Origin: Callorhinchus milii
Taxonomy: Eukaryota
NCBI RefSeq assembly: GCF_018977255.1
Contig: NW_024704742.1
Location: 4,838,001 to 4,902,000, forward strand
Length of the DNA stretch: 64,000 nt
Direction: 5' to 3'
In this document: piece after piece, positions 3,537-57,657 of the stretch
How positions within the stretch are numbered: the stretch's first letter is position 1
Layout: the number at the start of each line of letters is the position of its first letter
Position numbers and translations under genes: made by a program
Notes under the pieces: generated by a model
What the model saw: only the letters and a program-made list of their open reading frames with translations
What the model was told of the DNA's origin: nothing
Databases searched by the model: none

Positions 3537-7103
<3,567 letters not shown>

Positions 7104-11989: not shown

Positions 11990-12350
11990 ACAACAATAAG
12001 TTGCGTTTATGTAGTGTCTTTCATGGCGGGAGTAGGTCCCAAGCCACTGGACAAGTCGAGGGTCACCCCCGAGCTGGAGGTTAGATTCAACTGGGATGGG
12101 GTGCAAGGGTGATAGGGCTGGGAAGGTCAAAAGGTCTTGAGACGGACCTTGAAGGAGGCAAGGGAAGGAGCACGGAAAGGGTCTCCGGGGTGGAGTTCTA
12201 GAGAGTTGGGAAGTCTAGAGAGCTGAATTGGCATACTCTAGGGTGCACGTAATGAGTGTATGGATAAAGGGACTCGGTAGCTAAAGGGACAGGTGGTGAA
12301 GGTGGGAGAAAGATGAATGGGTCAGAGCACAGGTTTAAGGGGCAGTTGAG
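11990..12350 (-). mobile_element. Degenerate L2 3' fragment (copy at about 43052-43415)
   Basis: CAACAA tail and GACCTTGAAGGAGG..GGAGTTC match the L2 at 34290 in reverse. Confidence 0.6.
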
Positions 12351-13061: not shown

Positions 13062-13368
13062 AATAGTATGGTTAGAGCACTCGCTTTGCCAGTGAGAGAC
13101 CTGGGTTCAATTCCAGGCAGAGGGCGAAACCTTGGGCAAGTTTCCTTACTCCACACAGAGCCTAATAATAATCCCTCCAAAACCAAAAACAATAATAAAT
13201 TGGTCATTTTCAATCTACGACTGTTTGTGGGACATTGCTGTGCGCAATTGGCTGCCGCGTTCGCCCACAAATATACAGTCAATTCACTTTACAGTGTATT
13301 CTGTGAAGCGCTTTGGGACGTCCTCCCGACGTGAGAAGCGCTATATCAAATGCAAGGATTATTATTAT
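13062..13368 (+). mobile_element. Deu-type SINE, internally deleted subfamily (copy at about 44127-44433)
   Basis: B-box GGTTCAATTCC, Deu core, (TTA)n tail. Confidence 0.8.
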
Positions 13369-13559
13369 CACGCCGTTGAGATTGAGACGTCTCAAAGCGC
13401 TTCACAGAATACACAGCCAAGTGGATTGTGGATTTTGTGGGCGAAAACAGGGAAGAGCAAGGACTCGCAGAGGTTAGTAATAAATAATAGCCCCTCGCAT
13501 TTGATACAGGTGCCTTATCAGGTCTTCAAGACAACAACAACAAGATTTCATTTGTAGAG

Positions 13560-14720
13560 CGCCTTTCACGCCGGGAGGACGTCCCGAGGCGCTGGACAGT
13601 TGGGTCAGGTTGGGTGGGGAAACGGTCAGGGTGAGGGGAGGGGAGCGAAGACGTTCTCGGAGCGCTCCACAGAACATAGCGTTGGGGCCAATCGACCGTA
13701 TCCTGCGGGCGGAGCGCGGGGGGAGCCAATCGCGCACGGCAGCGTCCCCGCAAACAGCTGCGGGTTGCGTCACCAAATTATCAGTGATATTTTTTTTGGG
13801 GGGGGGGGGTGGGGGGGGTGACCATGACCAAATTAAATGGATGCAGTGGTTGGTGGTTGATGTTGAGATGGAGTGGGGAGTGGTGGGGGGGGGGGGGGGG
13901 GGGGGAGCAGGCAGCTCTCTGTCGCCTCCCTTGCGGTGCGAAGTGTGTATTACACCCACACACACGCACGCATGCGCAGAGCGTGCGAGGTGAGGCCGAG
14001 TCACGTGGGTGCGGGCGGAGGCGTCACGTGCCTGCCGCCGCCGCGCATGCGCCGCAAAGGCAAAGGAGGGTTCAGCGCGCGCGGCGACCGTTGGGCGTCT
14101 TCTCGTCCCCGCGAGTGAGCGGAGGCGTCGCCGCCGCCGCCGCCCGACCGCCGGACCGCGGCCTGTCCTGTCCTGTCCTGGGCCTCACCGGCACCGGCGT
14201 CAGGTCAGTCACTCCCAGGTTGACGTGTACGTTTACCGGCTCTCTCTGTGACGGTCTCCAGGGGCCTGAGCCAAGCGGGTCACCGGGGGTGGGGTGGGGT
14301 GGGGGGGCTCCCGAGGGCCGACTGACCCCCGGGCCCCCGGGACTGGCACTGGTCAGCAGGACCCTGGAAGGGACAGACCAGTCACTTATAAGGGGCGTCG
14401 CTGCACTCGGCTCCCGGTAATCGCCCGCCCGCGGGTCACAGCCCTGAGCCGGAGCGGCGGCGGCGGCGGCGCTTTCCCGCCCGTCATTACCGACACAACC
14501 ACCGAACTGTCATCGGTGAAGCCGCCTCTCACAGCGGTGGGGGAGGGGGGAGGGGGGGGGGCGTCCCAAGGCGCTGCACGGTCAGGGATTAGGACCTGGG
14601 AAGAGGGGGTGGGGGAGGGGGTGACCCCGTTACCCCACCGTTAACCCACCGTTACAGCAGCAGCAGCAACAGGTCCAACGCGACGCAACGCGGCGGCAAC
14701 AAAAAAAAACGCCGCCCCTC
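13560..14720 (+). promoter_or_regulatory. CpG island, probable sialidase promoter and non-coding exon 1 (copy 1)
   Basis: CpG-dense; GTCACGTG at 14000 and 14023, GCGCATGCGC at 14043, donor CAG|GTCAGT at 14204. Confidence 0.7.
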
Positions 14721-14886
14721 ACATCATCATAATAATTCATAATTAATAATAATGATAATAATCCTCGCGTTTGATACGGCGCCTTATCGCGTCTTCTCGA
14801 CCTCTCAAAGCGCTTCGCAGTTTAGAGGGTCGAGTGAATTGACCGGATGTTTGGGGGCCAAACGCGGCAGCCGGTTGCGCGCGGCT

Positions 14887-15170
14887 ATTATATATATATT
14901 ATTATATATAGTATATATATTATATTATAGCATATCATAGCTATGATAATATATGTTGTATATAATACATATATACATTATATATAATATACATATTATA
15001 TCATAGCATATCATAGCTACGATGACATAATATATTGTATATAATACATACACATACATTATATATAATATATATGTTATGTTATAGCATGTTATAGCTA
15101 TGATAATATATATTGCATATAATATATATATATTATATATAATACATATTATATTATAGCATGTTATAGC
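14887..15170. repeat. AT-rich degenerate minisatellite (copy at about 45968-46255)
   Basis: Recurring TATAGCAT...ATAGCTA..GATAATATAT units. Confidence 0.8.
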
Positions 15171-15256
15171 TGCCAAAGTTATGTTGGTTGTCGGGTGGAA
15201 TTTAACGACAGACAGAGGGAGGGGGACGAGCTGGAGGGAGGGAGCACCGGAAGTTA

Positions 15257-15570
15257 TTATAATCCTTGGGTTTGATGGAGCGCCTTATCGCACATCTTCT
15301 GGACGTCTCCGAAGCGCTTCACAGGATATACTGTAACGTGAATTTTGTGGGGGAAACGCGGCAGCCAGTTGCACGCAGCAGTGTCCCACGGATAGTCGTG
15401 GATTGAGTGACCAAGTAATTGTTGTTGTTTTTTTGTGAAGGGATTATTACCTCCAGAAAAGCGATCCGCCAATCGAATAACAGCTGGGTTCCTGCTTACT
15501 GCTTGGTAAGTAGAGGTGTGTAGAGTAAGGCAAGTGCCCAACATTTCGCCCACGCCGGGAAGCAAACCCA
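15257..15570 (-). mobile_element. Deu-type SINE (copy at about 46341-46655)
   Basis: Reverse complement of SINE body and tail. Confidence 0.8.
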
Positions 15571-16090
15571 GCAACAAAACGGCAGAGAGCATATGTTCTC
15601 TCAGTGTGGTGATATGCTGTCAGAACTTGTCCAATGGAGGATACGGAAGCAAGAGCAACCAATAAAGTAGGGTGAATGTGGTGCTGAGCTTGGGACAATA
15701 ATACAAAGGAGCCATTGTGCATAAATAATTGTGAAAAAACAGCAGTCGTGTTTAAAGATCAGCCAGTTTTATCTCGTGCATGGGTATAAAAGATCTGGTA
15801 CAATGTGTATTTAGGTTTATTTCTCCCTCAACGTGTTTAAAATCAACAGTAAAATCATTGAGGGATCATCTGGAAAGTTAGATTCAAATAAAAGGGCAAC
15901 TTAGTAATGGCCGATATGATGCATCAGATGGCTTGTTCCATGCTGGAAATTTCCGTGTTTTCTACGTCCAAAATAAACTACAGCCATATAATGCTGTAGT
16001 TGGTGTGCCGTGTGGAATTCATCTTCAGTGTCTGTTTTCCTCTCTTCAGGCGCATTGATATCTATTTCATTTCAATTCTATTGCAGCGAG

Positions 16091-16294
16091 ATGGCATCTT
16101 CAAATGTTTCTAGTAAAACTATCCTATTCAAAAGGGAAAAAGAGTTTTGGTATCGTATTCCTTCCCTCCTCCACGTTCCAAACACAGATACCCTTTTGGC
16201 GTTTGCTGAGAAGAGACTGGGACCCAAAGACGAAAATGCTGATGTGTTAATGCTACGGAAGGGCACCTATAAGAAGCCTTTGAAGAATTTTGAG
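16091..16294 (+). CDS. Sialidase coding exon 1 (copy 1)
   Basis: Matches 47161-47364. Confidence 0.88.
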
Positions 16295-17214
16295 GTAATT
16301 GGGAACGGGGATACGGGGATGAGTCTTGTGATGGTTAAGAAGTTAGAGCACTTCATCAGGTGTCAAGTCAGCCTGACTCAGTTGGTAGCACTTTTGCCTC
16401 TGTTTTTTGTTAAAACCCCTAATTGTCCAGCATCCTGGGACATCTTTCTGATATGAAGGGAGCTATACAAGTGTAATTTGTTGTTGTCAAAAGGAGACTC
16501 TTCGCATAAGTCTATAAATTGTATAAACACTTAAGTCATACATTCCACCCGAGTCCTATTCAGTTTCCTATCAAAAACACTTTGATTTCTTTACACGATT
16601 CATATTAATCACCTCTTAACTCGTATTATTATATTATTATTATATTATTAATAACACCGCTCCCCTACCCTCCATTCCTCCTGCGTATACCAGAGGCCTT
16701 GAATCACAGGGAATCTCAGTCTTAACCTATGACCTGATGTGCACTTATCAGCTGCATTAAATTACGCATGAATTAGATTATTGATTAAATCAGATTTTCA
16801 ACGATTTCTAATAGTTTACCTGCAACTTCACGTAAGTCATATAAAATGTTATGCTCCTGACTGATATGACTTATGTGAATTATACTGTATCGGCAGAAAA
16901 TAAGAAAAGCTTTTTAATGCCCTATGCAAGATAGAGATCCATGTATGTCCATATAGGTTCTATATGTTCTCAAAAGTCAGAATGTCACTTATATTCAGCC
17001 TAGGGTATGAGGATGTAATTTTCTAACTGGGAAGTTCCAGGATGTATGATTCAGAACAAGATTGTGATTCAGGAAAATTAAATCAAATTTTTATATTACA
17101 CAAGTTTCCAAGCAATCAGGCACATGTCAAAAGAAATGAAACCCCACCTAGTTTAATGCAAATAAAAATGCTTTCAGTGTTCAACTCAGTTCACTGCTGA
17201 TGTATGGTCAGATA

Positions 17215-17540
17215 CCGAGAAACTATTTCCTCTGGTGGGGAATCCGGAACATGGGGCATAATCTTAAAATTAGAGCTCGGCCATTTAGGAGTGAAATCAG
17301 GAGGCAGTTTTTCATGGAAAGCATAGTGGAAATTTGGAACTCTCTTCCCCCCCCCCAAAAGGTTGTGTGTGCTGGATTCATTCCATTTTCAAGACTCAGG
17401 TGGATAGGTATTTATTAGGTCGGGATATCAAGGAATACGGGTCAAGGGGGGTAATTGGAGTTGAGGTACAAATCAACCATGATCTTATAGAATGGTGGAA
17501 CAGGCTCGAGGGGCTGAATGGCCTCCTCCTGTTTCTATGA
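17215..17540 (+). mobile_element. CR1-like LINE 3' end in the sialidase intron (copy at about 48285-48610)
   Basis: GHNLKIR..FRSEIRRQFF..VEIWNSLP remnant and GGGCTGAATGGCCTCCTCCTG tail. Confidence 0.75.
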
Positions 17541-17588
17541 TTTTATGTAATTGCTCATTTCTATTTAATTTTCTTTTACTTTTCACAG

Positions 17589-17723
17589 TGGGAAAATGTT
17601 ACAAGCGTTCAGGCTGCAAGACTGAAGGACCACAGATCCATGAATCCTTGCCCTGTTTACGACAAAGATACAAACACTATCTTCCTCCTCTTCATTGCTG
17701 TCTTTGGAAATACACCCGAGCAT
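17589..17723 (+). CDS. Sialidase coding exon 2 (copy 1), truncated by the assembly gap
   Basis: WENVTSVQAARLKDHRSMNPCPVYD...PEH then Ns; matches 48658-48792. Confidence 0.85.
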
Positions 17724-17753
17724 NNNNNNNNNNNNNNNNNNNNNNNNNNNNNN
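17724..17753. other. Assembly gap (30 N)
   Basis: Run of Ns. Confidence 1.
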
Positions 17754-20968: not shown

Positions 20969-21225
20969 GCGAAACCTTGGGCAAGGGCGAAACCTTGGGC
21001 AAGTTTCCTTACTCCACACGCCTAATAATAATCCCTCCAAAAACAATAATAAAAAATTGGTCATTTTCAATCTACGACTGTTTGTAGGACACTGCTGTGC
21101 GCAATTGGCTGCCGCGTTTGCTCACAAATATACAGTCAATTCACTATACAGTATATTCTGTGAAGCGCTTTGGGACGTCTAGAAGATGTGAAAAGCGCTG
21201 TATCAAATGCAAGGATTATTATTAT
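20969..21225 (+). mobile_element. Deu-type SINE, 5'-truncated
   Basis: Body and tail match 13062-13368; duplicated GGCGAAACCTTGGGCAAG at the 5' end. Confidence 0.8.
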
Positions 21226-23027: not shown

Positions 23028-38175
<15,148 letters not shown>

Positions 38176-41100
38176 TCGTTTGTCTCGCATTAACCTGTAT
38201 AGAGTGGTGATTTTTAATGATTTGCTGATTTGGAATTTTGTGCGGTATATGGAATGGTTTACATGGGTTTGATTTGTTGGACCATTCCCATTTTTCAATT
38301 TTCCTGTTCTTTCACATCTGCTTATGACCAAAATTTTGTCTCGGGCAAAGGTTGTTCGTACATAACTCAGGGTTAAACCTGTGGCCAGTCCTCCATGCAC
38401 CATTTTCTGTCAATTTCCTAACATCCATGGTATTAAGTATTTTTGACAGGCAACTTGTTTCTTTCACCCTCCACACGCACACACAGACACACGCTTGTAA
38501 TCTTGATACTTTCTCTGACTCAGAAGAGCAACACCATGTCACCAAAGGAATCATAATCATTCCATGGCTTGATGTAAGGGGTTGGCTTTCTAGAATAAAG
38601 GCGGATTATTTCTTGAGAGTGGGGTAGCTGTACCAGAGTGGTAGAGAATTGACAAAATGTGTTGCGTTGTTGTTAATCATGGAGTTGAAATCCATGGTTG
38701 CAGCATTATCGAGAGAACCAGAGCCGTAATGCTAAGAATCCCCTTAAATATGCACTCCCTGTATTGTAACCGGATGGTGCGAACTATACTATAAATAGAG
38801 TAAGGTGTGAGCAATCACAACTTTGAGCAAAAGCTTCCATTATTTGAACGAGAAATCGCATACCAGTATCGTGGTAAATTTGACCAGCATCTGAAATGAT
38901 TACATTTCCAGGCCTGAAATAATCATAAATAGTGTTTGCCTTGTCTTGCATTTGGCTTTAGATTATTTAGGTAACACTGAATGTGGAAATCTTTTAAAGC
39001 AAATTGACAGTATGTTCGGAGTTTAAAAGTGAAGCATTTATGATGTGTTACTTTTACTAGAGTGTTATAGTTTGTTGGACTGGGTGGACATATTTGACCT
39101 TTGTCTAGGTTGAAAAAGTTTAATGCAGTCATCTATCTACGTTCCGCATGAAATGATTGAATTGAGATCCGTTCTAAGAGAGCTTGTAATGACCCGGATT
39201 GTGCTTGGGATTCTCCAAGGTAATACAAGCAACCTGTATTGTAAAAAGTCTTAACTGAAATTTATTTTGGTATAGTTACATTTGGAGCGTGTTCAGTGAC
39301 TGTACACTTGTATAAGTATACAAGTGTCAATTAGCATGTGTTGTTATCATGTGACTCTGCTTCAAAATCCGAGGGCTGAGGTTTATGTAGTTGACTGAAT
39401 TTAGCCCAGTCTGATTTTAAATTCAATCCAGGGCTCAGATTTATCAGGCAGTTTTATTATGATATCAGCATTTTTTGTAAACTAATTAATCTTTTTTCCT
39501 ACTGTGCTGCCAGATTCTGCTATTCTACACAACTACTTGTAAACCATTCCCAGGCTGTGCTTCTATGCACTGAAACCCCTTCATTTACGTTATTTCCCAT
39601 CCAGTCTGTTCATAACATCCAAAACTGTCAGAATGCATCTCATTACAATTTCTCATCATTATTAATTTTCTTCATTTACTCTTGGTCTGAATTCCAACCA
39701 GAAAGTGTAATGTGATTTCTGCATTTTAATACCTTCAGTTTTCCTCCAATTTGTATTGGAGTTAGTTGGTTATAAACGAGTACATTTGATGTTAAGTGTG
39801 ACTATTGTGGTTAAATAAGTCACTACAATAATAATAATAAATAAGTCACTACAATGTTAATAATAATACAATAATAATAATAATTATTAGATGCTGTTCA
39901 GGCTTGCATTTGGACTGAAGGACTGACTGATTAGCATGTAGCTGAATACATATCACTTGAAATAGTTGGACTTCCAGACCATTTCAATTGTTCCTTTACA
40001 TTTCAATTTCCTAATGCTTGGATATATTTTATTATTGTTTGATTTGTTTACTAATAAAACTGCATTACTATATTTTGTAATGGTTCTAATAGTGAGATTT
40101 TTTAATTAAGTGTTTTGAAGGACTCATAATTACTGAATACTATTCAGGGTAGCTTTGCTAAAATGCTATTTGCATACATGTGTATGTGTGGAGAAGGAAT
40201 TTGTTTTGATAACAACTATGGCTTTAGATTTAGACAATGGTTCCATATTCAAGGATGCCAGGTAAATATTTCAGCATTGAAAATTAATTGGATTTCTTGT
40301 GGCAGTATGTTTTGGAGTTAGTTACCTGCGGATTATGATGTCTTTAGACTTGCCTTCTGTTTGTATGAGCCATGTGACATCAAGTTAATTGGATTGGGTA
40401 CTTGCCGAAATTAACCCGCAGTGCAACAACTTTCTGTGGATGTTTAAAAGGCAATGGACTGGTTCTTTCTTAACTCATCATGTTTCCTCAAATGCATGCT
40501 TTGCTGTTAAACACTAAATATAAAATGTAAGTAATCCTATGATTATCACATACCATTCTATAGTGTGGGCTATAAACACTTACAGATTCAGAATTTGGCT
40601 ACCTGTAACAGATGTTTTATAATTTCTGTGCAATCCACCTTAATAGCAAAATATTGGCTCTATTGAATGCTAGACACTGCTAGATTCAACTAAAGTATTG
40701 ATTCTATTTAACAGCTTTTTGGAGTTGTGTGCCTTCTGTGTATAGTTTTATATAGTCGTGTACTTCTGCTTGCCAGTAAAATATGATTATTTTTATTTCA
40801 TGGTTCGAACAGATAATGCTATCAGGATGAATATATAAATGGGTATGTGGTCATGGATTTTTTTAAGCCTCTTCTATAGTTAATTGAATTTGAACTATAA
40901 ATTAATCTTGTGTCAACTGTTCATAGAAACTCCTGTAAATTGGGTAATGTGTTGGACTTTACACAAAGGATGCAAAAGCAGAACATTGTTTGGTTCATTT
41001 TGAGCTGAAACCTTTACACATTTCTGGACCGAAAGATGCCATAAGGCTTCACCCAGCTAGATGTTTACCTGATTACAATACCTGTACTTGTGTAAGCAGA

Positions 41101-44100
41101 ACACTATACTGTCTTAAAAGCAAGTGTCAAGTTTAATCCAACAATACCTATCCTTTTCCAAGAGTTTTAAACTCTGTGCTGCGATGTTTTCGAGGAACCT
41201 AATGAGTAACTTAACACAATATGTGTGGGGAAAGGGGGGAGGAGTGGCAGTGTCCACGCTGTTTATGCCTGGGATGACCTGGATAACACTGGGATGAGCT
41301 GTATAACATTAGTAGTACAATGCTCAGCTACAGAGTAAAAATATTTATGGGGATGTTGTCCTACAAAGAATGAACTAAATTATATAGAAACTTCCTTTCA
41401 GCCCACCTTAAAATAGTAATAAATATGCAAAGTTACCTACCTTTATTTCAACAACTGCACATGGTTTAAAACACTTTGTAAGGGATTATTTTTGAATAAA
41501 CTGACTTAATAGATTGTTTCCCCTTTAATAAGGGGAACGTTGTATTTGCTGCTACTATTGCTAAGTGGAATATTATTCACTAACCCTACAAACTGCAACT
41601 GCTGAGAAAACCCACTATTACACACCTTTGCTATGCAGTTTCAACAGTAGTTGAACTAATTACTCAGGGTAGAAATTACCAAATATAAAGCGAAAAGAAA
41701 ACGGATCATGGCATCTGCACAATAAAATTTGCTTTGAAAATTGTATTTGTTTCACAATTAATGTACATATTTGTAGAACGTGTTTCTTAAAGCTTTAGTC
41801 CGAAAGTAGATACTGGAGGCGATACGTAATCAATAAGTAATGGGTACTTTTTTTAATCCTAGTTACACGCTTTCTTTAGAAGCTTATTTATTATTTAAGA
41901 CCTTCATCAATTTCAGAAGAGCAGCCGGATCAGGTGTGGGGATTGTCTGTTGTGTTAAATGTAGTGTTTTAGCTCTCTTTTGAGATTGAGTATCTGAGAC
42001 TTTAATGGAGCATTGAAATTATGGCTTTTTCAACAACAAATTTATAAACTGTTAATCAAAGTACATTATTAATATACATGTCTTAAATGGATCATAGAAT
42101 CTAAATTCTTTCAACTAGTTTTCGTTTTTGGACATAGAACCAAAAAGGTTTGAGATCTGTCCTCAACTAAATGTACCGTGGATTGTGGGGGAACAGTTCA
42201 AAATTTATATTATCCTTTCGTGTAACCAACTGGCAACTATTGACCTTAACTTCAGCCAAGCTTTATATGCCAGCAGAATATCGTAAAAATGTTTGCTTTC
42301 AAATGCCCTTTAAACCCCACACCTGTTAAATATTGACAGTACAAGGGTTTTGAGCTTAACTCTGGGTTTTAATAATATAACCAAGTGTTTTCAGTAATTG
42401 CACACAATTGAATTGTGAGAGACGCATGTGTATCTTTAGTGACTGGGTTATCCGAGGACCAAGAACGTACAGATATTCACTTGTCTGTCTTGTAAATACG
42501 GTCAGGTCATAGGTGCAGTTTTGGAGGAAATTTATATTTGTATTCCGGTTCAGATGCTGCAGTGAATTCTTGCCCTCCAGGGGATAAGATTCCATGAACA
42601 TCACAGTTTGCAATTCACAAAGTAAGTCAAATCTTAATTTGCAAATTTCTCTAGCATCAAGATAACCCCCTCCCCCCATTGCTATTGAGGATACAGTATT
42701 CAGAAATCGTCCTGTTTTGTAATATAATAATCCTTACATTTGATGTAGTGCCTTATGTTGTTGAGATTCTCATAGCGTTTCACAGGATATACTGTGAAGT
42801 GGTGGGACTGAGTATTTTGTGGGTGAATGCGTCAGCCAATTTGCCCACAGCAATGTACCACAAACAGCCATGGAGTGGGTGACCCAAATTTTTGAGTGAT
42901 TTGGTCAGGAGACCAGGAGAAACTTACTTAACAAATAGTGCCATGGGATCCTTAACATCCACCTGGACAGGCAGACGGAACCTCAGATGAGGCATGGAGG
43001 TGATGGGTTCATAGAGCCTAATGCGGGAATTTCAGAGATCCGGATGATCTGTAACAACAATAAGTTGCGTTTATATAGTGTCTTTCATGGCGGGAGTAGG
43101 TCCCAAGCCACTGGACAAGTCGAGGGTCACCCCCGAGCTGGAGGTTAGATTCAACTGGGATGGGGTGCAAGGGTGATAGGGCTGGGAAGGTCAAAAGGTC
43201 TTGAGACGGACCTTGAAGGAGGCAAGGGAAGGAGCACGGAAAGGGTCTCCGGGGTGGAGTTCTAGAGAGTTGGGAAGTCTAGAGAGCTGAATTGGCATAC
43301 TCTAGGGTGCACGTAATGAGTGTATGGATAAAGGGACTCGGTAGCTAAAGGGACAGGTGGTGAAGGTGGGAGAAAGATGAATGGGTCAGAGCACAGGTTT
43401 AAGGGGCAGTTGAGTGATGATCAAGACTAATAACATGGTGCCATGGGATCTTTAGCATACGCCTGAACAGTTAAATGGGACCTCAGTTTAAGGTCATAAA
43501 ATACACAATCCAAGGGATAGCAACGCCAACGATACAGTGCATACCCAGCAATGCGGTGTCACCTCCCACAGGGTGCTCCAACTGGCGGCCAGCGGGCCGA
43601 TTTCATCCCCCACCCTCCCTCCATTTCATCTGGCCCACCCTCTCCCTCCATAACCCGTAAATGTTGTTTCTGGAAGAGGAAGACACAAAAATATTAATTC
43701 TGTGCCCCGTGGAGTTTCTCCAATAGGGCATCTGTCCCTCAACAGCCTGAGGTTGGACCATCCTGGACGTGAATTCAAAAGTGCAGTCTTGGGATTTGAA
43801 CTCATAATCTTCCGGCTCAAGAGACCGGAGCGCTGCCGATTAAATGAGGCTAACTAAGTGTTTAATGTAGTGCCCTGAAATTCACGTAGTATAATGTCTT
43901 AACGCACTTCACAAAGGTGGGGTCCAATATTGAGCAAGGAAGAAGGGGGATCATAGGCATGGGGTTTTTGGTGGGATTTAAAGATGGATATGGAGAGGGG
44001 GTAAAGAACAAAATAATAATAACCATTGCATTCGATACAGCGCCTTATCGCGTCATTGAGACGTCTCAAAGAGGTAGGGTTTTGGTGAGATTTAGAGACC

Positions 44101-44649
44101 AGTACGAGGTGGGGCAGGGACCAATGAATAGTATGGTTAGAGCACTCGCTTTGCCAGTGAGAGACCTGGGTTCAATTCCAGGCAGAGGGCGAAACCTTGG
44201 GCAAGTTTCCTTACTCCACACAGAGCCTAATAATAATCCCTCCAAAACCAAAAACAATAATAAATTGGTCATTTTCAATCTACGACTGTTTGTGGGACAT
44301 TGCTGTGCGCAATTGGCTGCCGCGTTCGCCCACAAATATACAGTCAATTCACTTTACAGTGTGTTCTGTGAAGCGCTTTGGGACGTCCTCCCGACGTGAG
44401 AAGCGCTATATCAAATGCAAGGATTATTATTATCCTTGCATTTGATGTAGCGCCTTATCACGCCGTTGAGATTGAGACGTCTCAAAGCGCTTCACAGAAT
44501 ACACAGCCAAGTGGATTGTGGATTTTGTGGGCGAAAACAGGGAAGAGCAAGGACTCGCAGAGGTTAGTAATAAATAATAGCCCCTCGCATTTGATACAGG
44601 TGCCTTATCAGGTCTTCAAGACAACAACAACAAGATTTCATTTGTAGAG

Positions 44650-45800
44650 CGCCTTTCACGCCGGGAGGACGTCCCGAGGCGCTGGACAGTTGGGTCAGGT
44701 TGGGTGGGGAAACGGTCAGGGTGAGGGGAGGGGGGGGAGGGAGGGAGCGAAGACGTTCTCGGAGCGCTCCACAGAACATAGCGTTGGGGCGAAGCGACCG
44801 TATCTTGCGGGCGGAGCGCGGGGGGAGCCAATCGCGCACGGCAGCGTCCCCGCAAACAGCTGCGGGTTGCGTCACCAAATTATCGTGATATTTTTTTTTG
44901 GGGGGGGGTGGGGGGTGACCATGACCAAATTAAATGGATGCAGTGGTTGGTGGTTGGTGGTTGATGTTGAGATGAAGTGGGGAGTGGTGGTGGGGGGGGG
45001 GAGCAGGCAGCTCTCTGTCGCCTCCCTTGCGGTGCGAAGTGTGTATTACACCCACACACACGCACGCACGCGCAGAGCGTGCGAGGTGAGGCCGAGCGGG
45101 CGAGTCACGTGGGTGCGGGCGGAGGCGTCACGTGCCTGCCGCCGCCGCGCATGCGCCGCAAAGGCAAAGGAGGGTTCAGCGCGCGCGGCGACCGTTGGGC
45201 GTCTTCTCGTCCCCGCGAGTGAGCGGAGGCGTCGCCGCCGCCGCCGCCCGACCGCGGCCTGTCCTGTCCTGTGCCTCACCGGCACCGGCGTCAGGTCAGT
45301 GACTCCCAGGTTGACGTGTACGTTTACCGGCTCTCTCTGTGACGGTCTCCAGGGGCCTGAGCCAAGCGGGTCACCGGGGGTGGGGTGGGGGGGGCCTCCC
45401 GAGGGCCGACTGACCCCCGGGCCCCCGGGACTGGCACTGGTCAGCAGGACCCTGGAAGGGACAGACCAGTCACTTTTAAGGGGCGTCGCTGCACTCGGCT
45501 CCCGGTAATCGCCCGCCCGCGGGTCACAGCCCTGAGCCGGAGCGGCGGCGGCGGCGGCGCTTTCCCGCCCGTCATTACCGACACAACCACCGAACTGTCA
45601 TCGGTGAAGCCGCCTCTCACAGCGGTGGGGGAGGGGGGAGGGGGGGGGGCGTCCCAAGGCGCTGCACGGTCAGGGATTAGGACCTGGGAAGAGGGGGAGG
45701 GGGTGACCCCGTTACCCCACCGTTAACCCACCGTTACAGCAGCAGCAGCAACAGGTCCAACGCGACGCAACGCGGCGGCAACAAAAAAAAACGCCGCCCC
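44650..45800 (+). promoter_or_regulatory. CpG island, probable sialidase promoter and non-coding exon 1 (copy 2)
   Basis: GTCACGTG at 45104 and 45127, GCGCATGCGC at 45147, donor CAG|GTCAGT at 45295. Confidence 0.7.
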
Positions 45801-47160
45801 TCACATCATCATAATAATTCATAATTAATAATAATGATAATAATCCTCGCGTTTGATACGGCGCCTTATCGCGTCTTCTCGACCTCTCAAAGCGCTTCGC
45901 AGTTTAGAGGGTCGAGTGAATTGACCGGATGTTTGGGGGCCAAACGCGGCAGCCGGTTGCGCGCGGCTATTATATATATATTATTATATATAGTATATAT
46001 ATTATATTATAGCATATCATAGCTATAATATAATATGTTGTATATAATACATATATACATTATATATAATATACATATTATATTATAGCATATCATAGCT
46101 ACGATGACATAATATATTGTATATAATACATACACACATACATTATATATACTATATATGTTATGTTATAGCATGTTATAGCTATGATAATATATATTGT
46201 ATATAATATATATATATTATATATAATACATATTATATTATAGCATGTTATAGCTGCCAAAGTTATGTTGGTTGTCGGGTGGAATTTAACGACAGACAGA
46301 GGGAGGGGGACGAGCTGGAGGGAGGGAGCACCGGAAGTTATTATAATCCTTGGGTTTGATGGAGCGCCTTATCGCACATCTTCTAGACGTCTCCGAAGCG
46401 CTTCACAGGATATACTGTAACGTGAATTTTGTGGGGGAAACGCGGCAGCCAGTTGCACGCAGCAGTGTCCCACGGATAGTCGTGGATTGAGTGCCCAAGT
46501 AATTGTTGTTGTTGTTTTTTGAAGGGATTATTACCTCCAGAAAAGCGATCCGCCAATCGAATAACAGCCGGGTTCCTGCTTACTGCTTGGTAAGTAGAGG
46601 TGTGTAGAGTAAGGCAAGTGCCCAACATTTCGCCCACGCCGGGAAGCAAACCCAGCAACAAAACGGCAGAGAGCATATGTTCTCTCAGTGTGGTGATATG
46701 CTGTCAGAACTTGTCCAATGGAGGATACGGAAGCAAGAGCAACCAATAAAGTAGGGTGAATGTGGTGCTGAGCTTGGGACAATAATACAAAGGAGCCACA
46801 TAAATAATTGTGAAAAAACAGCAGTCGTGTTTAAAGATCAGCCAGTTTTATCTCGTGCATGGGTATAAAAGGTCTGGTACAATGTGTATTTAGGTTTATT
46901 TCTCCCTCAACGTGTTTAAAATCAACAGTAAAATCATTGAGGGATCATCTGGAAAGTTAGATTCAAATAAAAGGGCAACTTAGTAATGGCCGATATGATG
47001 CATCAGTTGGCTTGTTCCATGCTGGAAATTTCCGTGTTTTCTACGTCCAAAATAAACTACAGCCTGTAGTTGGTGTGCCGTGTGGAATTCATCTTCAGTG
47101 TCTGTTTTCCTCTCTTCAGGCGCATTGATATCTATTTCATTTCAATTCTATTGCAGCGAG

Positions 47161-49680
<2,520 letters not shown>

Positions 49681-50501
49681 TTCAAACTGAAGAAGAAAAT
49701 GTGTGATTGAGGTATTGTGAAATAAAGCAAACAGTGCAAATATTTTACAATGCTGATTATACCTTAATAATAATCCTTGCATTTGATATACCGGCTTATC
49801 ATGTCTTTGGGATGTCTCAAAGCACTTCACAGGATATACTGTAAAGTGAATTGACCATATTGACATTAAATTGCATAGAGGGGAAGCAGGAAAGGAAGAA
49901 AAATATTCTTCCGCAGGTCGTATGGATCTGGTAGGATCTAATTCTAAAGGAATGTTGATTGTAGAAACCATTGTAATACCTGTGTGTAATAAATTATTAT
50001 TTATGAGTAATCCACAGCATATAATTTTCTGGAATTGTTCAGTGATGTCAAACACCATTCTGCTGCATATGTTCTAAAATGGTCAATGGAAATATTTTGA
50101 AAGAAATGGCAAAAGCAATTCAATAAAGATAAAATACAGTAAATCCTGTGAAGTGCTGTGAAATGTCCTCCTGACATGAACGATGGAAGAATTATCGGTG
50201 TTAGTTGACTTGTTCTCCAGGTGCGGACTGTGAGGCAGCAACGACAACGACGTCAAATTACATTTGCATAACGCTTTTCACGCCCTCGTGAAAGGAAATT
50301 CGAGGATATTTATTGTCCTCCTGAGTGTGTCATTTAACTCAGGACATTTAAATTTAATTTAATTTCTGTCCGGCCCTCTGGTTGACTGTTAAGGGCCACT
50401 GTGAAATGCAGCGTCGATGAAATCCCACTCCGACCGGGTCTTAATAACCCACGAGAGCACCCAAAACCGACTGAAGGGCTGCAGAAGGACACTCGAGACT
50501 G

Positions 50502-50787
50502 AACCGCTCACCACCAGGGGGCGCTGTAACCGCTCACCACCAGGGGGCGCTGTAACCACTCACCACCAGGGGGCGCTATAACCTCTCACCACCAGGGGGC
50601 GCTGTAACCTCTCACCACCAGAGGGCGCTGTAGCCACTCACCACCAGGGGGCGCTGTAGCCACTCACCACCAGGGGGCGCTGTAGCCACTCACCACCAGG
50701 GGGCGCTGTAACCACTCACCACCAGAGGGCGCTGTAGCCACTCACCACCAGAGGGCGCTGTAGCCACTCACCACCAGAGGGCGCTGT
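50502..50787 (+). repeat. 26-bp minisatellite x11, each unit a CTCF consensus site
   Basis: CCACCAGRGGGCGCT starts at 50511, 50537, 50563, 50589, 50615, 50641, 50667, 50693, 50719, 50745, 50771. Confidence 0.95.
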
Positions 50788-50867
50788 CCGGCTGTCGGGT
50801 CATGTGACCCTCGGGCCTGGCGACTGGAAGTGGAGCCGCGGCCGTTGGTGAGTCAACAGAGACCAAT

Positions 50868-51045
50868 GGGGGGGACCGGGGGGCGGGGGGGGGCACAGGG
50901 ACCCGGGGGGGGGGGGGGACAGGGACCCGGGGGGGGGGAGGGGCACAGGCGGGGGGGGGGGGGACCAGGGGGGGGGGACCAGGGGAGGGGCACAGGGGAG
51001 GGGGAGGGGCACAGGGACCGGAGGGGCACAGGGGGGAGGGGGGGG
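50868..51045 (+). repeat. G-run tandem repeat (GGGGG-CACAGGGACC-like units)
   Basis: Many runs of 3 or more G with short linkers. Confidence 0.85.
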
Positions 51046-51226
51046 ACACGGCCTCGTGAGCAGTTGTTGTTGCTGTCGGTCCCTAATCGTCACAGTTCCG
51101 TCGGTCGGTCGGTTCCTAACGGAGCAACTGACTAAGGCGGAGCCGTTAGTTGTGGAGTATTAACTAAGTTTAACGGCGCGAATCCATCCGTATTCGTCTC
51201 CAGAACCAGTCACGACCGCACCGTGA

Positions 51227-51307
51227 GGCCGAGGTGGGGAGAGGGGCCCTGACGTGGGGCCGAGGTGGGGAGAGGGGCCCTGACGTGGGGCCGAGGTGGG
51301 GAGAGGG
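51227..51307 (+). repeat. 31-bp tandem repeat, about 2.6 copies
   Basis: GGCCGAGGTGGGGAGAGGGGCCCTGACGTGG repeated. Confidence 0.9.
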
Positions 51308-51459
51308 ACTCCAGTGGCCGCGGGTCACGCGGTGGCGGAAGCTTCGACGACACACGTCGCGGTGACAGCTCAGACACCGACACGGACGGACGGAAGGACT
51401 TTGCATCTTTGTAATCGCCGTTTGACATCGGAACGTCTCGGAAGCACTCGGCGGTCAGT

Positions 51460-51531
51460 GCCGAGCGGCGGGTCAGGGCCGAGCGGCGGGTCAGGGCCGA
51501 GCGGCGGGTCAGGGCCGAGCGGCGGGTCAGG
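51460..51531 (+). repeat. 18-bp tandem repeat x4
   Basis: GCCGAGCGGCGGGTCAGG repeated. Confidence 0.9.
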
Positions 51532-51809
51532 CAGCGTCTGCGCAGAGACTGAAATCCGTTGAGAGAGGTGTCGGAGGGGTCGGTGACCGTCCGGAAAGGG
51601 GTCGCGGAGGTGCGCGGCGCTCGTTGGGGCCGATACAAAGCGAATCCTCCTCCTCCTCCTCCTCCCCGTACCCGCGGGTACCGAGGCCGGTGCGGGGACC
51701 CGCGGGGCACGGAGTTCGGGGCGGCGTCTCCCGAGCGTTCCGCTGCTACTCACAGGGGGCGCTCGAAGGCGCCACCGGGAGGGACGCCGGAGCCGCTCTC
51801 GTCCCCGAT

Positions 51810-52060
51810 ATGGATTCGGGGGCGGGAGGCCCGTCCCCGGCGGCGGCGGCGGCGGCGCGGGCCGGAGGGGCCGGAGCGGCCGGAGCGGGCCGGAGGGGCC
51901 GGAGGGGCCGGAGCGGCGGCGCGGGCCGGAGGGGCCGGAGGGGCCGGAGGGGCGGCGCTAACGCCGGCGGTTGTGGCCAAGATCGAGAGGAGCCGACAGC
52001 GAGCGCTGCTGCTGAGGCGGGCGCGGGTGGCGAGCGGACCCCTCCCCGCCCTCCGCTCAG
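51810..52060 (+). CDS. XPA: XPA exon 1 (apparent frameshift near 51887; GC donor)
   Basis: MDSGAGG... in one frame and [23 protein letters not shown] in another; ends CAG|gcgagt. Confidence 0.75.
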
Positions 52061-55000
52061 GCGAGTACCGGAGCGTCGCGGAGAGGGGAGGGGGTGGGGA
52101 GGGGACGAAGGTGAATCAAAAGCTGCGGCGGATCCCAAAGCTCCTCACAGGAGAGTCACAGCAGAGCTCTCATCGAGGAGCTTCAATGGCATCGTTGCCC
52201 CCCCCCCACACCCCCCACACCCCCCACCCCCCCCCACCCCCCCACACCCCCCCCCCCCCCCACCCCCCCCCACACACCCCCACACCCCCCCCAGCCCCCC
52301 CCACCCCCCACACCCCCCACACCCCCCCAGCCCCCCCACCCCCACACCCCCCCCCCCCCCCCACCCCCCCCCAGCCCCCCCACACCCCCCCCCACACCCC
52401 CCCCCACACCCCCCACCCCCCCACACCCCCCCAGCCCCCCACACCCCCCACACCCCCCCCACACCCCCCCCCCCCCCCCACACCCCCCCCCACCCCCCCC
52501 ACCCCCCCACACCCCCCCCCCCAGCCCCCCCACACCCCCCCACCCCCCCAGCCCCCCCCACACCCCCCACACCCCCCCCCCCCCACCCCCCCACCCCCCC
52601 CCCCCACCCCCCCCACACCCCCCCCCCCCCCAGCCCCCCCAGCCCCCCCACACCCCCCCCCCAGCCCCCCCACACCCCCCCCCAGCCCCCCACACCCCCC
52701 CCCCCCCCCCCCACACCCCCGCGGGTTGTCCTGATTCCGATGACCGCCCAAAGCCTCTTCTGTGAAGGGTATGGAGTCCGAGGTTCGGCCGTGCAAACCC
52801 CTCACGGTGAGGTGTGAAGGTCCCCCACATCTCCATCGGCCCATTTGGATGAAGGTCCCAAAGACTGACCCCCTACTCCCAGTAGTAGAAACAAAAATAA
52901 ATCAAAACGTCTTCCAAGACAACGATAGCAGAGAAATCCTCCCCCTCGTCTTCGGTTAGTTTCACCGGGAAAGGGACTTTCAATGGCTGTGTATACATAT
53001 AATGCCACATTTTTCTTCCGCGCTGACAGGCGGCACTGGTGCACATCTTCTCCCCAAAGTGAAAGACACGGAGGGCGGATTCTTTCTGGAAGAAGAAGCG
53101 GAGGTGGTGCAGGAGGTGGATAAAGTGATCAGTGAGCCAGGTACCCTTCCATTCACTGAAGGCGTTTGCGGAGTCCTGTAGCTCAGTGGTTAGAGCACTC
53201 GCCTCGCGAGCGAGAGGACCCGCGTGAGATGGCCCGGGTCAGGGCAAAGCGTTGGGCAGGTTTCCTGACACACACGCACACACGCCTCTGTTTATCTAAC
53301 AGTAAGTCGGAACCAGGCTGTTAGTCGATTGGCGGATCGCTTTTCCGGGGGTAATAATCGCTTAAAAAAAAACCCGGTCACTCAATGTACGACTGTTTGT
53401 GGAACATTAATGTGCGCAATTGGCCGCCGCGTTTCGCCCACAAAATACACAGTCAATTTACTTCACAGTATATTCTGTAAAGCTGCTTTGAGACGTCTCG
53501 AAGACGTGATGAGGCGCTGTATGAAATGCAAGGATTATTATTGTAGTACCCGTAGTATGCGGCAGGACTCCTTCATAACTGACAGATGCATTATCGAAAG
53601 ATCTGTAGGTTTTTAGCAGACTTTACCTATCCGGCTAAAGGGAAATCTCATTCTACACATATTCTACACATCAGTGGGTAGGAATTTCACCCATCAGGAT
53701 GTATCTTGAACCCAGTTATTCTGTTTGGCTCAGAATCCTTCCCTGGTCATTTATATTTTAGAAGTCGTACTGGAAACAATTCCTTTTACAGACAGTGGTG
53801 TGAGTGAGTGTGAAGTGTACTGTCCAGAATGCCTTAGGTGCAGAATGATTTGGGTGGATCAGTTCACACTGTTAGATCGTATTATTTGATTTAACAGAAG
53901 TTGTGCTGTACAGGTCGCTAAACAGCATTTATATAGTACTAAATAATCCTGACATTTAGTATAGCAAAGGTCCCAAACCGCTTATCAGGATATACTGTAA
54001 AATGTAGTGACTTGTGTTTTGGATTAATCTCACTATATTAATGGAAATACTTTGGGAAATTTGGTGCTTTTGTCGGCAGAGTACAAGTGAAAAGGTTTCC
54101 TGAGCTATTGAACGTGATGTACAATTTACAACTTTATAACTGTGACATGCCGTCAGCCGAGGGATAATCTGTATAGCTTTCACTTCTGTACCTTGTCCTT
54201 CAAAATAGGGTTGGAATCAACGACTGCAGCTCACAGCTGACCAGCTCTCACACTAAAATGGTTAACCTCTGGGTCATTGGGTCACCACCGACACCATTCC
54301 CCGCACGTGTGCAGCACAGAGGAGTGACGTCGGGAGCGACTCGATGATCTGGAATTCAGCATTTTTTTTATTGGAGGGACCGGTCGGTCGGCTGTGTGCG
54401 TGGGAATTGAAAGCGTTGCTTCATTCTGGGTTGGGATTTTATGTCATAAAACATAAAATTCCAAGAGCTATGTTATAACGGGATTCCAATGTCTTACATA
54501 ACTATTATTAGTCACAGGTGTTGACTGGCTCAGTGCTGTTGCATTGGACCACTGAGTCATTGAGTTAATAATGTCATCTTTTTAATATGTTCTGTGGTTC
54601 TGTAGTGTTCCTGACTGTTCCTGTAGTGTGATTAAACATCTGGCTGAGTACACAAACTTCTGAGGGTATGCATTACAACCAGTCTCTATCCTGCCCAAGC
54701 TTAGGTAACTATTTAATCTGCTGTTAAGGGTGTTTCTAGTGAGGAAGAGTCTACTCCACATGAGTATTTGTCTTCCTTTCTTTCAGGACCTTTTCTGGAA
54801 TTCGATTATTTAATGTGCGAGGGATGTGACAAAGAATTCATGGAGTCCTTTCTCAGCAATCGCTTCAATCTGTCTGTGTGCGATGCCTGCAGGTACTGCC
54901 AGTCGTTTGGTCCCTTTCCTGTTTAAATGCAATGTTCTGTAGGTTTCAGGGACACGGTGCTCAATCCTAGATATTGTGGTGCTCTCAATGCCTGGGAAAA

Positions 55001-57657
55001 TCTGGCAGGAGGTTGAAGCAGATAATTTTGTTGGTAGAAATTGGATGTGTCTGTGTGGAAACTCTCTTGGATAATATGGCAGAAATGTGTCGTGCAGGAG
55101 AGACTTCAGATGGTGAGGACTCTATAGGACATTGTGGGAAAGACTAGATGCAGAATTGATTAGGGATACGGAGAGAAGGCGGAAATGTGAGATGAAAGAT
55201 AAGCCGTGAATAAACTGGTGGAACAGGCCATGTCCTCCTCCTGTCCTTATTGTCAACTATCCTTAAAAATGGAAGCAAGCATTTGTTTCTTATAATAATC
55301 CTTGCATTTGATATAGCGCCTTATCATATCTTCGAGACGTCTCAAAGTGCTTCACAGGATATAGAGTGTATTGACTGTATATTTTATGGGCGAAACGCGG
55401 CTGCCAATTGTGCACAGCAGCGTCCCACAAACAGTCATGGATTGAGTGGCCAAATCATTTTTTGATCCACAAACAGTCCCGACATTCGACTGATAACCGG
55501 GTTCCTACTTACTGCTGGGTAAACAGAGGCGTGTGGAGTAAGGAAACTTACCTAAGGTTTCACGCTGCCCGGGAATCAAACTCAGGTCCTCTCGCTCGTG
55601 AGGCGAGTGCTCTAACCACTGAGCTACAGGAATATAGATCACTGGCAGAAATATTTTTGTTTTTTTGGTGAGCCGAGTGTCTTGGCACATCAGCATGTTT
55701 CTGTCTAGGTACCCCCATGAATGGCTAACCAAAGGAGGAGATTTCCAATTTTTTTTCAGATGAATTAAAATAATCATTCAGCAAATGCTGCATTGTATAT
55801 AAAAACGTCTAACCTCCTGGCCTACGTTTTTCACTCTCTGGGCCCGTTGTTTTAGGTTTTAGCCGTTTCACCGATTGGATACCTTGTTAATTTCAGAGAT
55901 GCTGAAGGCAAACACAGGCTCATCACACGGACAGATGCAAAGAAGGAGTTTCTGCTGAAAGACTGTGACCTGGACAAGCGGGAACCTGTCCTGCAGTACA
56001 TGCTGAAGAAGAACCCGCACCATTCCCAGTGGGGAGACATGAAACTTTACCTGAGATGCCAGGTAAATGCCGGTATCTTTCAAAGTAATTCATTTGGTCC
56101 AACATCAAAGACAACAGCTTCACCTTTATATAGCATCTTTCACGCCACGAGGACGGTCCCAGCTCTCAAAACATGGTGACTGTGGGCAAATTTGAGTGAA
56201 TTGATCTGACCAATGAAGAGATTAACATGGGATCATGGAGCGTAGAGACTCATTACTGTAATCATGATTTTTATGATGGCCGGTTTAGATGAATGAGCCG
56301 AGGATGTGCACAACTTGACGTACCTTAATGTGTTTAATACCTTAATAACTCTAGAATAGCTTTTGATATTTCCTGCAGAGAGAGCCGCTTTCCCCAAGCC
56401 GTGAAATGGGAGGTGGTTGGATAACTGTTGCAAATAAACACCGATTATCCTCTCAATTGAAGGCAAAATATTTTTGGTTTTCACCCCGCGTCAGCGCCAG
56501 GGAGAACAACCGTGCGCAACAGCGGCAATGTTCGAGATCACGTCTCTGAGGTTTGCGTGCTTTTTATTTTTCCGTCTTTAGGCGGCGAAGCGTTCCCTGG
56601 AGGTGTGGGGCAGCGAGGAAGCTTTGGAAGAAGCCAAGGAAGCCCGTCAAGAAACTCGAGAGAAAATGAAGCATAAGAAATTTGACAAAAAAGTAAAAGG
56701 TGCGCGAGGGCGCCTGGCTGTGTCAGGGCCGCCTAACCAGCTGTGGCTCGTATGTGCCCACGTCTCTTTAACTGCCTGTTTGATTCAGGGGAAGATTTCT
56801 TTTTAAACTCCCAATTTTTTTTTCAGATGAATTAAAATAATCATTCAACGTTTTAGAATTTTTATCGCCGCTGTCCTGCCATTGCAGTGAGCTGGCAAGG
56901 TTCCATCGGTGTAAGTCGATCAGTACTTATTAAGCTTTAGAAAAGTCACAGCCCCTCAATAGCCATGACTCTATTCGGCGAGCGGCTGAGCCAAACGCAA
57001 AGGGCTTTGAAAGAGAATGAGGATTCCTGATGGGTGTTGTTAGCTGACCTCAGCCAAGGTAATATCAAACCAAAAAATCAGCTGTAAAACCAGCCAGGCT
57101 TTCTTCTCCTGATCACTATCCTTTATCTCCTGTACGGACATTTGATCAGCGCTGAACTTTGATAAGGTTGCACAAATGAATTACTTGCCAAATAAGTTGT
57201 AAGTCGAGACTTACAACTTGAATAATGATTTATTTGAGTGATGCCTGCTTATACTACAAGAGGAAAATGTCCAATGTGTTTGTGTGTGGGGGGCTGGGGG
57301 GAGTTTTAGAGTGCAGATTTTGATGTAGCTCTTTTGAAAATACTTGATGAACTATTTACCTGTCAGCAAAAAGTCAGCTGTCAATCAGTGATGTCCTAAG
57401 GACAAGATTCACTTGTCAAGAGCTGAAGTCTGTGATTGCTGTGTGTTACCTATCAAAAAGGGTCATCTTAAATGACTACTGTTTGTCGTCTTCCACTGTT
57501 CTCAGAGCTGCGGCGAGCAGTGAGGAGCAGCCTGTGGAAAAAGCAATCAGCTGCACATCAACACGAGTATGGACCAGAAGAAGCGGATGTTGAGGAGGAC
57601 ATGTACAAGAAGACCTGTGTAATATGTGGTCACCAGCTAAGCTACGAAAAAATGTGA
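51810..57657 (+). CDS. XPA: DNA repair protein XPA, six coding exons
   Basis: Exons 51810-52060, 53030-53140, 54787-54892, 55897-56062, 56582-56699, 57506-57657; [18 protein letters not shown]4 zinc finger CEGC...[19 protein letters not shown]-terminal [19 protein letters not shown] at 57728. Confidence 0.96.
52198..52720 (+). repeat. About 520-bp C-rich low-complexity tract in XPA intron 1
   Basis: C runs separated by A, ACA or AG. Confidence 0.95.
53030..53140 (+). CDS. XPA: XPA exon 2 ([15 protein letters not shown])
   Basis: gacag acceptor, CAG|gtaccc donor, 111 nt. Confidence 0.93.
53170..53542 (+). mobile_element. Full-length Deu-type SINE in XPA intron 2
   Basis: GGAGTCCTGTAGCTCAGTGGTTAGAGC head through the (TTA)n tail. 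Confidence 0.88.
54787..54892 (+). CDS. XPA: XPA exon 3 (zinc finger)
   Basis: [25 protein letters not shown], 106 nt. Confidence 0.95.
55293..55632 (-). mobile_element. Deu-type SINE in XPA intron 3
   Basis: Reverse complement, head to tail. Confidence 0.85.
55897..56062 (+). CDS. XPA: XPA exon 4
   Basis: [26 protein letters not shown]...[11 protein letters not shown], 166 nt. Confidence 0.95.
56582..56699 (+). CDS. XPA: XPA exon 5
   Basis: [18 protein letters not shown]...KKFDKKVK, 118 nt. Confidence 0.95.
56985..57135 (+). mobile_element. Possible LF-SINE-like ancient remnant
   Basis: GTTAGCTGACCTCAGCCA...CAGCCAGG...CTCCTGATCACTATCC resembles the recalled LF-SINE core. Confidence 0.3.
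57506..57657 (+). CDS. XPA: XPA exon 6
   Basis: [12 protein letters not shown]...HQHEYG...[13 protein letters not shown]. Confidence 0.95.

Follow-up and report, generated by a model that had tools for sequence, protein, structure and literature searches.

The gap between a NEU-type sialidase gene and XPA in Callorhinchus milii contains a minisatellite in which a 26-bp unit is repeated 11 times, and every unit carries a 15-bp CTCF-type core in one and the same orientation. The minisatellite occupies positions 50502 to 50787 (+ strand) of the window, by which we mean the whole 64,000-base stretch of DNA that was analysed, and the number of motifs is far beyond chance for the window. Judged from motif quality and position, from which the functional reading is drawn, the array is probably a promoter-proximal cluster of candidate sites bound by CTCF.

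Structure and motif content of the array

Tandem Repeats Finder (TRF) reported the array with a period of 26, 11.0 copies, 95% matches, 0% indels and a score of 474, and direct unit-by-unit reading gave the consensus A(A/G)CC(G/A/T)CTCA-CCACCAG(G/A)GGGCGCT-(G/A)T. The core, CCACCAG(G/A)GGGCGCT, occurs once per unit on the + strand, at 50511+26k to 50525+26k (k = 0 to 10), and its position 8 is G in seven and A in four of the 11 units. A pattern scan of the 64,000 bases with the 14-mer CCASCAGRGGGCGC returned 11 matches, all on the + strand and all within the array; no match to it was found elsewhere in the 64,000 bases, and the mean number in 100 dinucleotide-preserving shuffles was 0.00. The degenerate 15-mer CCASYAGRKGGCRSY, which we take to be the CTCF consensus (a literature search for this pattern gave no match), identified exactly the 11 array sites in the 64-kb window when up to one mismatch was allowed, against 0.26 expected, and no further CTCF-type site with one mismatch or fewer to the 15-mer was present on either strand of the 64 kb. 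The CTCF identity of the units was judged by consensus-pattern matching, using the 14-mer, the degenerate 15-mer and a 19-mer, TGGCCACCAGGGGGCGCTA, that is printed as the canonical CTCF consensus in the available text of two papers. All 11 units match the 14-mer and the 15-mer, which represent the core consensus of a CTCF site (zinc fingers 3-7), with zero mismatches, and they share 15-17 of 19 positions with the printed 19-mer, the mismatches falling on the two outermost left positions and the last right position.

The first-pass annotation of this DNA had described an 11-fold 26-bp repeat with a CTCF core in every unit and all sites in a single orientation, and the TRF result, the unit reading, the 14-mer scan and the agreement with the printed consensus bear it out on each of these points. 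It had also listed a further partial site, CACAGGGGGCGCT, near 51751. This word is present at 51751-51763, within CTCACAGGGGGCGCT at 51749-51763 (+ strand), but with three mismatches to the 15-mer it is no better than chance, as 29 matches of this quality were found in the window against 36.8 expected from shuffles; it was rejected as a twelfth site and excluded from the element. Two structural readings of the array were also rejected. Hairpin, cruciform or slipped structure was discarded because the folding of either array strand was poorer than that of 200 of 200 shuffles (z +4.79 and +2.64), and a canonical G-quadruplex inside the array was discarded from the sequence, which has one G5 run per 26 bp and 21-nt spacers.

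Genes flanking the array

The last coding exon of the sialidase gene (48656-49680, + strand) generated a Pfam hit on BNR_2 (E = 2.3e-33), ends with a TAA stop codon at 49678-49680, and is entered through a GT..AG joint (47362 to 48656) seen in contigs from both run X5 and run X10. Its protein showed 96% identity to a C. milii exo-alpha-sialidase, the next best match being 72% (sawshark), which assigns the window to this chimaera or to a close relative of it and agrees with the chondrichthyan origin assumed in the first-pass annotation. The 3′ UTR (49681-50140, + strand) contains AATAAA at 49721, 49988 and 50122 and is followed by contigs to 50106 (X10) and 50140 (X5). On the other side of the array, the first exon of XPA (51039-52063, + strand) is covered by contigs that start at 51039 (X5), 51119 (X9) and 51247 (X10), and it contains the ATG at 51810, not at 51811 where the start codon had been placed in the earlier annotation. 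Exon 1 encodes the conserved N-terminal motif of XPA and a later exon the XPA_C domain (E = 6.2e-23). Exon 1 ends at 52060-52063, and an X9 contig continues from it into exon 2 at about 53033. As the contigs of X5 and X10 carry the sialidase splice joint and this X9 contig joins exons 1 and 2 of XPA, the contigs of these runs were treated as RNA-like.

The array starts 361 bp past the last RNA-covered sialidase base (50140); from its end it is 251 bp to the point where RNA cover of XPA begins (51039) and 1,022 bp to the ATG. The two genes are arranged head-to-tail on the + strand with at most 898 bp between the covered transcripts, and the 11 motifs are co-directional with both. The placement of the array between a sialidase gene and XPA, which had been proposed earlier, is confirmed by the Pfam domains and the contig joints. 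Contig cover of 50306-51001 was absent in X9 and X10 and had a depth of 0-2.9 in X5, from which we draw nothing on transcription of the array.

Several features of the two genes were noted in passing. The junction between XPA exons 1 and 2 (52060-52066 / 53028-53033) fits only as a GC..AG intron with the exon ending at 52060, no GT donor being available at the other cuts, and the donor of XPA intron 1 is possibly non-canonical. In the assembled sequence, the conserved N-terminal motif reads in frame 51811 and not in that of the ATG at 51810. RNA-like contigs of X5 and X9, which come from two studies, are net 73 nt shorter across a GGGCCGGAG-type repeat (51827-51931), a shortening that would restore the frame; the frame problem of exon 1 may reflect an assembly error or a repeat allele, or else de Bruijn collapse of the repeat in the contigs. 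A very high-copy dispersed repeat lies at about 49765-49957 in the sialidase 3′ UTR (summed depth in run X1 up to 388,854), and SINE-like pieces similar to it lie at 13116-13368, 20980-21225, 24818-24997, 44181-44433 and 55292-55462. A tRNA-like stretch is present at about 53170-53230 in XPA intron 2. Finally, positions 1-17723 of the window are a 98.6-99.7% identical copy of 30320-48792, in which exon 1 of the sialidase and the initial 137 bases of its last exon are contained. This 17.7-kb copy, outside which the CTCF-motif array lies, stops exactly at a 30-N gap (17724-17753); it represents a partial duplication of very recent origin or else an artefact of assembly (haplotig).

The XPA 5′ region

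The 251 bp that separate the array from the start of XPA cover (50788-51038, + strand) were taken, from sequence, TRF and contig starts, as the presumed XPA promoter stretch. It contains words that we take to be E-box-like (TCATGTGAC, 50800-50808), ETS-like (GGAAGT, 50827-50832) and CCAAT (50863-50867), and the CCAAT word is followed by a G-run tract at 50868-51050 (TRF rows 50868-51045). The stretch looks like a TATA-less promoter. The CpG observed/expected ratio is 0.93-1.26 in the five 200-bp bins of 51000-51999 and 0.85 in 52000-52199. Over the array the ratio is 0.45-0.68, despite a G+C content of 0.60-0.67, which places the array on the 5′ shore of the island and not in it; the earlier description of the array as lying at the edge of the XPA CpG island is therefore roughly right as to the shore, but the array does not belong to the island itself.

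Unrelated tandem repeats crowd the XPA 5′ region in the TRF output (50868-51045, 51222-51307, 51449-51531, 51840-51958 and 52198-52720). Within the XPA 5′ UTR, the repeats are 31 bp x 2.8 at 51222-51307 and 18 bp x 4.7 at 51449-51531. Contigs of X5 and X9 skip 51227-51257, equal to one 31-bp unit fewer, and small indels at about 51496-51537 vary between runs; these 5′ UTR repeats look polymorphic. XPA exon 1 lies between the G-run tract at 50868-51050 and, within intron 1, 523 bp of C-rich, CCCCCCCACA-like sequence (52198-52720), both read on the + strand, such that strong sequence of the quadruplex/i-motif type and of opposite polarity flanks the CpG island on two sides.

A putative XPA-facing boundary or loop anchor

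The reading that we prefer, and to which we give about an even chance, is that the array is a promoter-proximal, constitutively occupied boundary or loop anchor that faces XPA and was born by amplification of one site. The element would be a single-locus minisatellite in which one strong forward CTCF site was multiplied eleven-fold in the sialidase-XPA gap, and CTCF would bind the cores through fingers 3-7. By convention, loops anchored at a forward motif of the + strand extend toward higher coordinates, so loops from the array would run over XPA and away from the sialidase gene. With the motifs pointing to XPA, bound CTCF would stall cohesin coming from the XPA side, and the array would keep XPA in the downstream domain, apart from the sialidase gene. 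A reverse-oriented partner site with one mismatch or fewer was not found in the window; the best ones within the 13 kb that lie downstream carry 2-3 mismatches, no better than expected by chance, and CTCF loops usually span far more than 13 kb.

Several published observations bear on this proposal, as given in the available text of the sources. Cohesin is described as blocked by CTCF only on the side that the N-terminus of CTCF faces. Insulation is reported to rise with the number of strong sites per cluster, in models and in the experiments that their authors cite (PMC11828424), tandem CTCF sites are reported to act as insulators (PMC7087399), and clustered CTCF sites to associate with promoters (PMC4562119, PMC10832218). 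In skate, mammalian-type CTCF motifs (MA0139.1) have been described in open chromatin at TAD boundaries, pointing inwards. Shark CTCF is described as having 11 zinc fingers, and the C. milii CTCF gene has been used in a phylogeny. Reportedly, CTCF ChIP-seq data have been produced from catshark and bamboo shark, but not from Callorhinchus.

Methylation and packing of the sites

The core CCACCAGGGGGCGCT has CpA at position 2, and its sole CpG starts at position 12, in a register of the 15-bp core that we assume to be that of the structural work to which a review of CTCF binding refers. In the passages available from that review, methylation at motif positions 12-13 has almost no effect on CTCF in vitro. 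As the only CpG of the core falls at the tolerant position, occupancy would be expected to be constitutive rather than methylation-switched. The array sites would be of the methylation-tolerant kind, and a methylation switch is unlikely; the earlier suggestion that methylation of the core CpG could tune the array loses weight to the same extent, given the assumed register.

The same review, as available, states that CTCF fingers 3-7 read 15 bp, that fingers 1-2 and 9-11 can contact the flanks, and that the upstream module for fingers 9-11 occurs in only about 15% of sites. In the array, one period of 26 bp corresponds to 2.45-2.50 helical turns, in line with the figure of about 2.5 turns given in the first-pass annotation, and two periods (52 bp) to 4.9-5.0 turns. 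At this period, 6 bp remain between neighbouring 20-bp motifs and 11 bp between neighbouring 15-bp cores. The double-occupied CTCF sites described in the available text of PMC4562119 have 20-bp motifs with linkers of 30-40 bp, which makes the simultaneous filling of 11 sites with 6-bp linkers doubtful. Neighbouring units, lying on opposite faces of the helix, could probably not all be filled together, whereas alternate units (52 bp, about 5 turns) would be in phase and could accommodate roughly 5-6 CTCF molecules side by side. With such alternate filling, the locus would almost never be empty.

Unit variation and tandem cores in other contigs

The units vary at columns 2 (A/G), 5 (G/A/T), 17 (G/A, within the core) and 25 (G/A). 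The first-pass annotation had stated that differences fall in the flanks except for a G/A change in the core. The variable columns are as it claimed, and G/A is the sole change in the core, but avoidance of the core is not significant, as having one or fewer of the four variable columns inside the 15-bp core has P = 0.19 under random placement. The variation therefore gives no sign of selection, and the units are simply young. Adjacent units differ on average at 1.10 positions and all pairs at 1.82; that neighbouring units are more alike than distant ones fits local duplication, and amplification would most likely have proceeded by slippage or unequal exchange. It need not have been adaptive in itself.

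A scan for two cores 8-20 bp apart was carried out on metagenome contigs, with 596 Gb of bacterial and archaeal contigs as the control. The metagenome contigs contained three such loci, namely a 27 bp x 3.5 array (L001), a 34 bp x 5.7 array at 1429-1622 of JAAUXT010128374.1 that abuts a Rab38-like exon (L002), and a locus with two core sites in which no tandem repeat was found (L003). The exon beside L002 matched Rab-38 in PDB (E = 7.3e-18), with a weak match to Ras in Pfam (E = 0.007). The array of L001 aligns to the window array at 79-81%; otherwise none of the three loci shares sequence with the window. The differences between the units of L002 all fall at core positions 4, 5 and 8, which are degenerate in the motif, and none in the 19 flank positions. 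In the prokaryote control, five loci were found at which the 14-mer of the window array occurs in 2-4 tandem copies, in organisms from which CTCF is absent. Among them, L004 (270-419 of a Bacteroidales MAG contig), L006 and L007 have 2-4 tandem copies of the word CCACCAG(A/G)GGGCGC at a period of 29-32 bp; the arrays filed as bacterial may have arisen by chance, represent a bacterial repeat not yet recognised, or stem from foreign DNA that was binned into MAGs. As these organisms lack CTCF, tandem copies of this G+C-rich word can arise without it. The idea that CTCF-consensus minisatellites form a class enriched in animals was not supported, the prokaryote control being positive as well and only L002 being demonstrably animal-like.

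These comparisons bear on a stronger version of the proposal, in which the array is a close-packed CTCF super-site. The 2.5-turn spacing would force alternate filling, several co-oriented CTCF molecules would always be present, binding would be insensitive to CpG methylation, strength would be set by copy number, and the array would belong to an undescribed class of canonical-core CTCF minisatellites in animals. The hint toward such a wider class comes from L002, which varies only at degenerate positions of the core, and we regard the version as a whole as unlikely.

Alternative explanations

That the array is a neutral minisatellite deserves serious, if minority, weight. One CTCF site, or a chance G+C-rich word, would have been amplified by slippage; CTCF might bind, eleven copies would add nothing over one, and copy number would drift. 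Other tandem repeats abound on the shore of the CpG island, which indicates that repeats form commonly at this place, and contigs of two runs show a one-unit difference in the nearby 31-bp repeat. The units of the array itself are 95% alike with no avoidance of the core, and the 14-mer has been multiplied in tandem in the CTCF-free prokaryote contigs. Speaking against neutrality, a full 15-bp core is expected in a random G+C-rich 26-bp unit with a probability of only about 2-3e-5, a value that is small for one window and not negligible over a whole-genome scan. The array also falls precisely within the narrow interval separating two genes of the same strand, a place at which a boundary would serve a purpose, and near-consensus CTCF sites are usually occupied in other vertebrates.

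The array could also be a promoter element rather than an insulator, which we consider quite improbable. It would then resemble the paired CTCF sites known as 2xCTS and activate or poise the XPA promoter, sites of this type in elasmobranchs perhaps being bound in testis by the paralogue CTCFL as well, or it would act as a roadblock to read-through from the sialidase gene. Its end 251 bp upstream of the first XPA base with RNA-like cover is compatible with such a role, as is the head-to-tail arrangement of the genes with no more than 898 bp between the covered transcripts. Clustered CTCF motifs are moreover described as preferring active promoters and as co-bound by CTCFL (PMC4562119, PMC10832218, available text), and testis-biased CTCFL has been described in elasmobranchs. 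The 6-bp linker, however, is far from the 30-40 bp of documented 2xCTS, and in the available text of the sources CTCFL is reported for elasmobranchs whereas only CTCF is mentioned for C. milii.

It is very improbable that another factor reads the array, either an EGR/WT1/Sp/MAZ-like protein recognising GGGGGCG-type words or a PRDM9-type zinc finger at a recombination hotspot, with the likeness to CTCF sites being secondary. Minisatellites often coincide with recombination hotspots, and words of the GC-box type overlap with the G-rich half of the core; against this, each of the 11 units matches all 15 core positions, among them the CCACCAG half, for which GC-box factors have no need.

The depth and course of contigs over the array bear on its copy number and abundance. 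Run X1 was treated as DNA-like, as its contigs cover introns and intergenic DNA evenly, have no splice joints and carry variants of their own. Its summed contig depth was 10.5-14.8 on the array bins, 4-24 in nearby bins without dispersed repeats, and 10^3 to 3.9x10^5 in bins with dispersed repeats. Depth is not equivalent to copy number, and these values are a weak hint that the 26-bp unit is not a high-copy widespread satellite, the outcome that the first-pass annotation had named as speaking against its reading. The immediate flanks of the array are not repeat-like. The figure of 11 copies is that of the assembly, as contigs built from k-mers (31-mers) break inside the array and none spans it; the longest X1 contig entering it starts in unique sequence and extends as far as the third unit (49832-50562), X1 variants lie just upstream at 50453-50467, and X1 contigs cover both array bins. 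An array that exists with a number of units other than 11, as an assembly artefact, is scarcely credible. It would go with other assembly problems of the window, namely the 17.7-kb near-identical duplicate ending at an N gap and the frame problem of XPA exon 1, which has no counterpart in the RNA-like contigs, and with the 31-mer contigs stopping short of spanning the array; against it, a DNA-like run with its own variants covers both array bins and one of its contigs leads from unique sequence into the third unit.

Significance of the array if occupied

If occupied by CTCF, the XPA-facing array would be a natural experiment with eleven consensus-strength, co-oriented sites at the tightest spacing that we found described. 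It would address how many CTCF molecules can be held in 286 bp, whether boundary strength scales with copy number, and how a boundary is born by repeat expansion, in a lineage whose split from bony vertebrates dates back more than 400 million years. It would further show how regulation is kept separate for two genes on one strand with under 1 kb between them. If not occupied, it would be one more minisatellite in a repeat-rich CpG-island shore. The array is a neat natural test case for the packing of CTCF and for the birth of boundaries through repeat expansion. It is a likely candidate for a boundary element of a kind that mammals are known to have.

Comparison with known systems

The closest precedent for the array appears to be DXPas34 at the mouse Tsix promoter, which is described, in the available text of PMC3149622, as consisting of 34-, 31- and 30-bp monomers at a promoter with a CTCF site in each and a number of sites that varies between species. 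Like DXPas34, the array is a short-unit tandem repeat beside a promoter with one CTCF-type site per monomer. DXPas34 is, by the same account, CpG-rich, rodent-specific, X-linked and involved in X-inactivation, and its sites were predicted by looser consensus motifs. Compared by description, the array differs in its 26-bp unit, its near-perfect canonical core, its methylation-tolerant CpG, its location at a housekeeping repair gene and its cartilaginous-fish host. The CpG-rich, methylation-controlled nature of the DXPas34 monomers has no counterpart in the array, where the CpG observed/expected ratio is 0.45-0.68 and the one core CpG lies at positions 12-13 in the assumed register.

The 2xCTS (Pugacheva et al. 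2015, 2024; PMC4562119, PMC10832218) have at least two motifs per peak, are associated with promoters and show double footprints. The array likewise has close motifs near a promoter, with 11 in 286 bp at 251 bp upstream of covered XPA, but its 6-bp linker falls short of the 30-40 bp of 2xCTS. In the available text of these papers, 2xCTS have two motifs rather than 11 and are not built as tandem repeats. At the Pcdh, Igh and HoxD boundaries, several co-oriented sites act together (PMC7087399, PMC11828424); in contrast to the units of the array, these sites are described as separated by hundreds of bp to kb, as having individual flanks and as not forming a minisatellite.

Copy-number-variable arrays with one CTCF site per unit that serve as boundaries or superloop anchors have been described for DXZ4, FIRRE, ICCE and the 1q23.3 tRNA VNTR, but the units given for them are of kilobase size (3 kb, 7.3 kb) rather than 26 bp. 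Short units near a gene are found in the promoter and intron 2 VNTRs of SLC6A4, which are reported to be CTCF-regulated (PMC2848977), and the human HRNR repeat is a short-unit VNTR that has been linked to CTCF. For SLC6A4 and HRNR, the available accounts describe functional or statistical evidence and no canonical full-consensus core in every copy. That expansion of a VNTR adds CTCF sites has been put forward as a conjecture in available published text. Among the matches listed in full-text literature searches (main texts), there was no description of a 26-bp canonical-core CTCF array, or of a CTCF array at XPA or in Callorhinchus. The array is unusual in that several features come together: each copy has a canonical core, the packing is at 26 bp, all sites share an orientation, the CpG falls at a methylation-tolerant position and the host is a cartilaginous fish.
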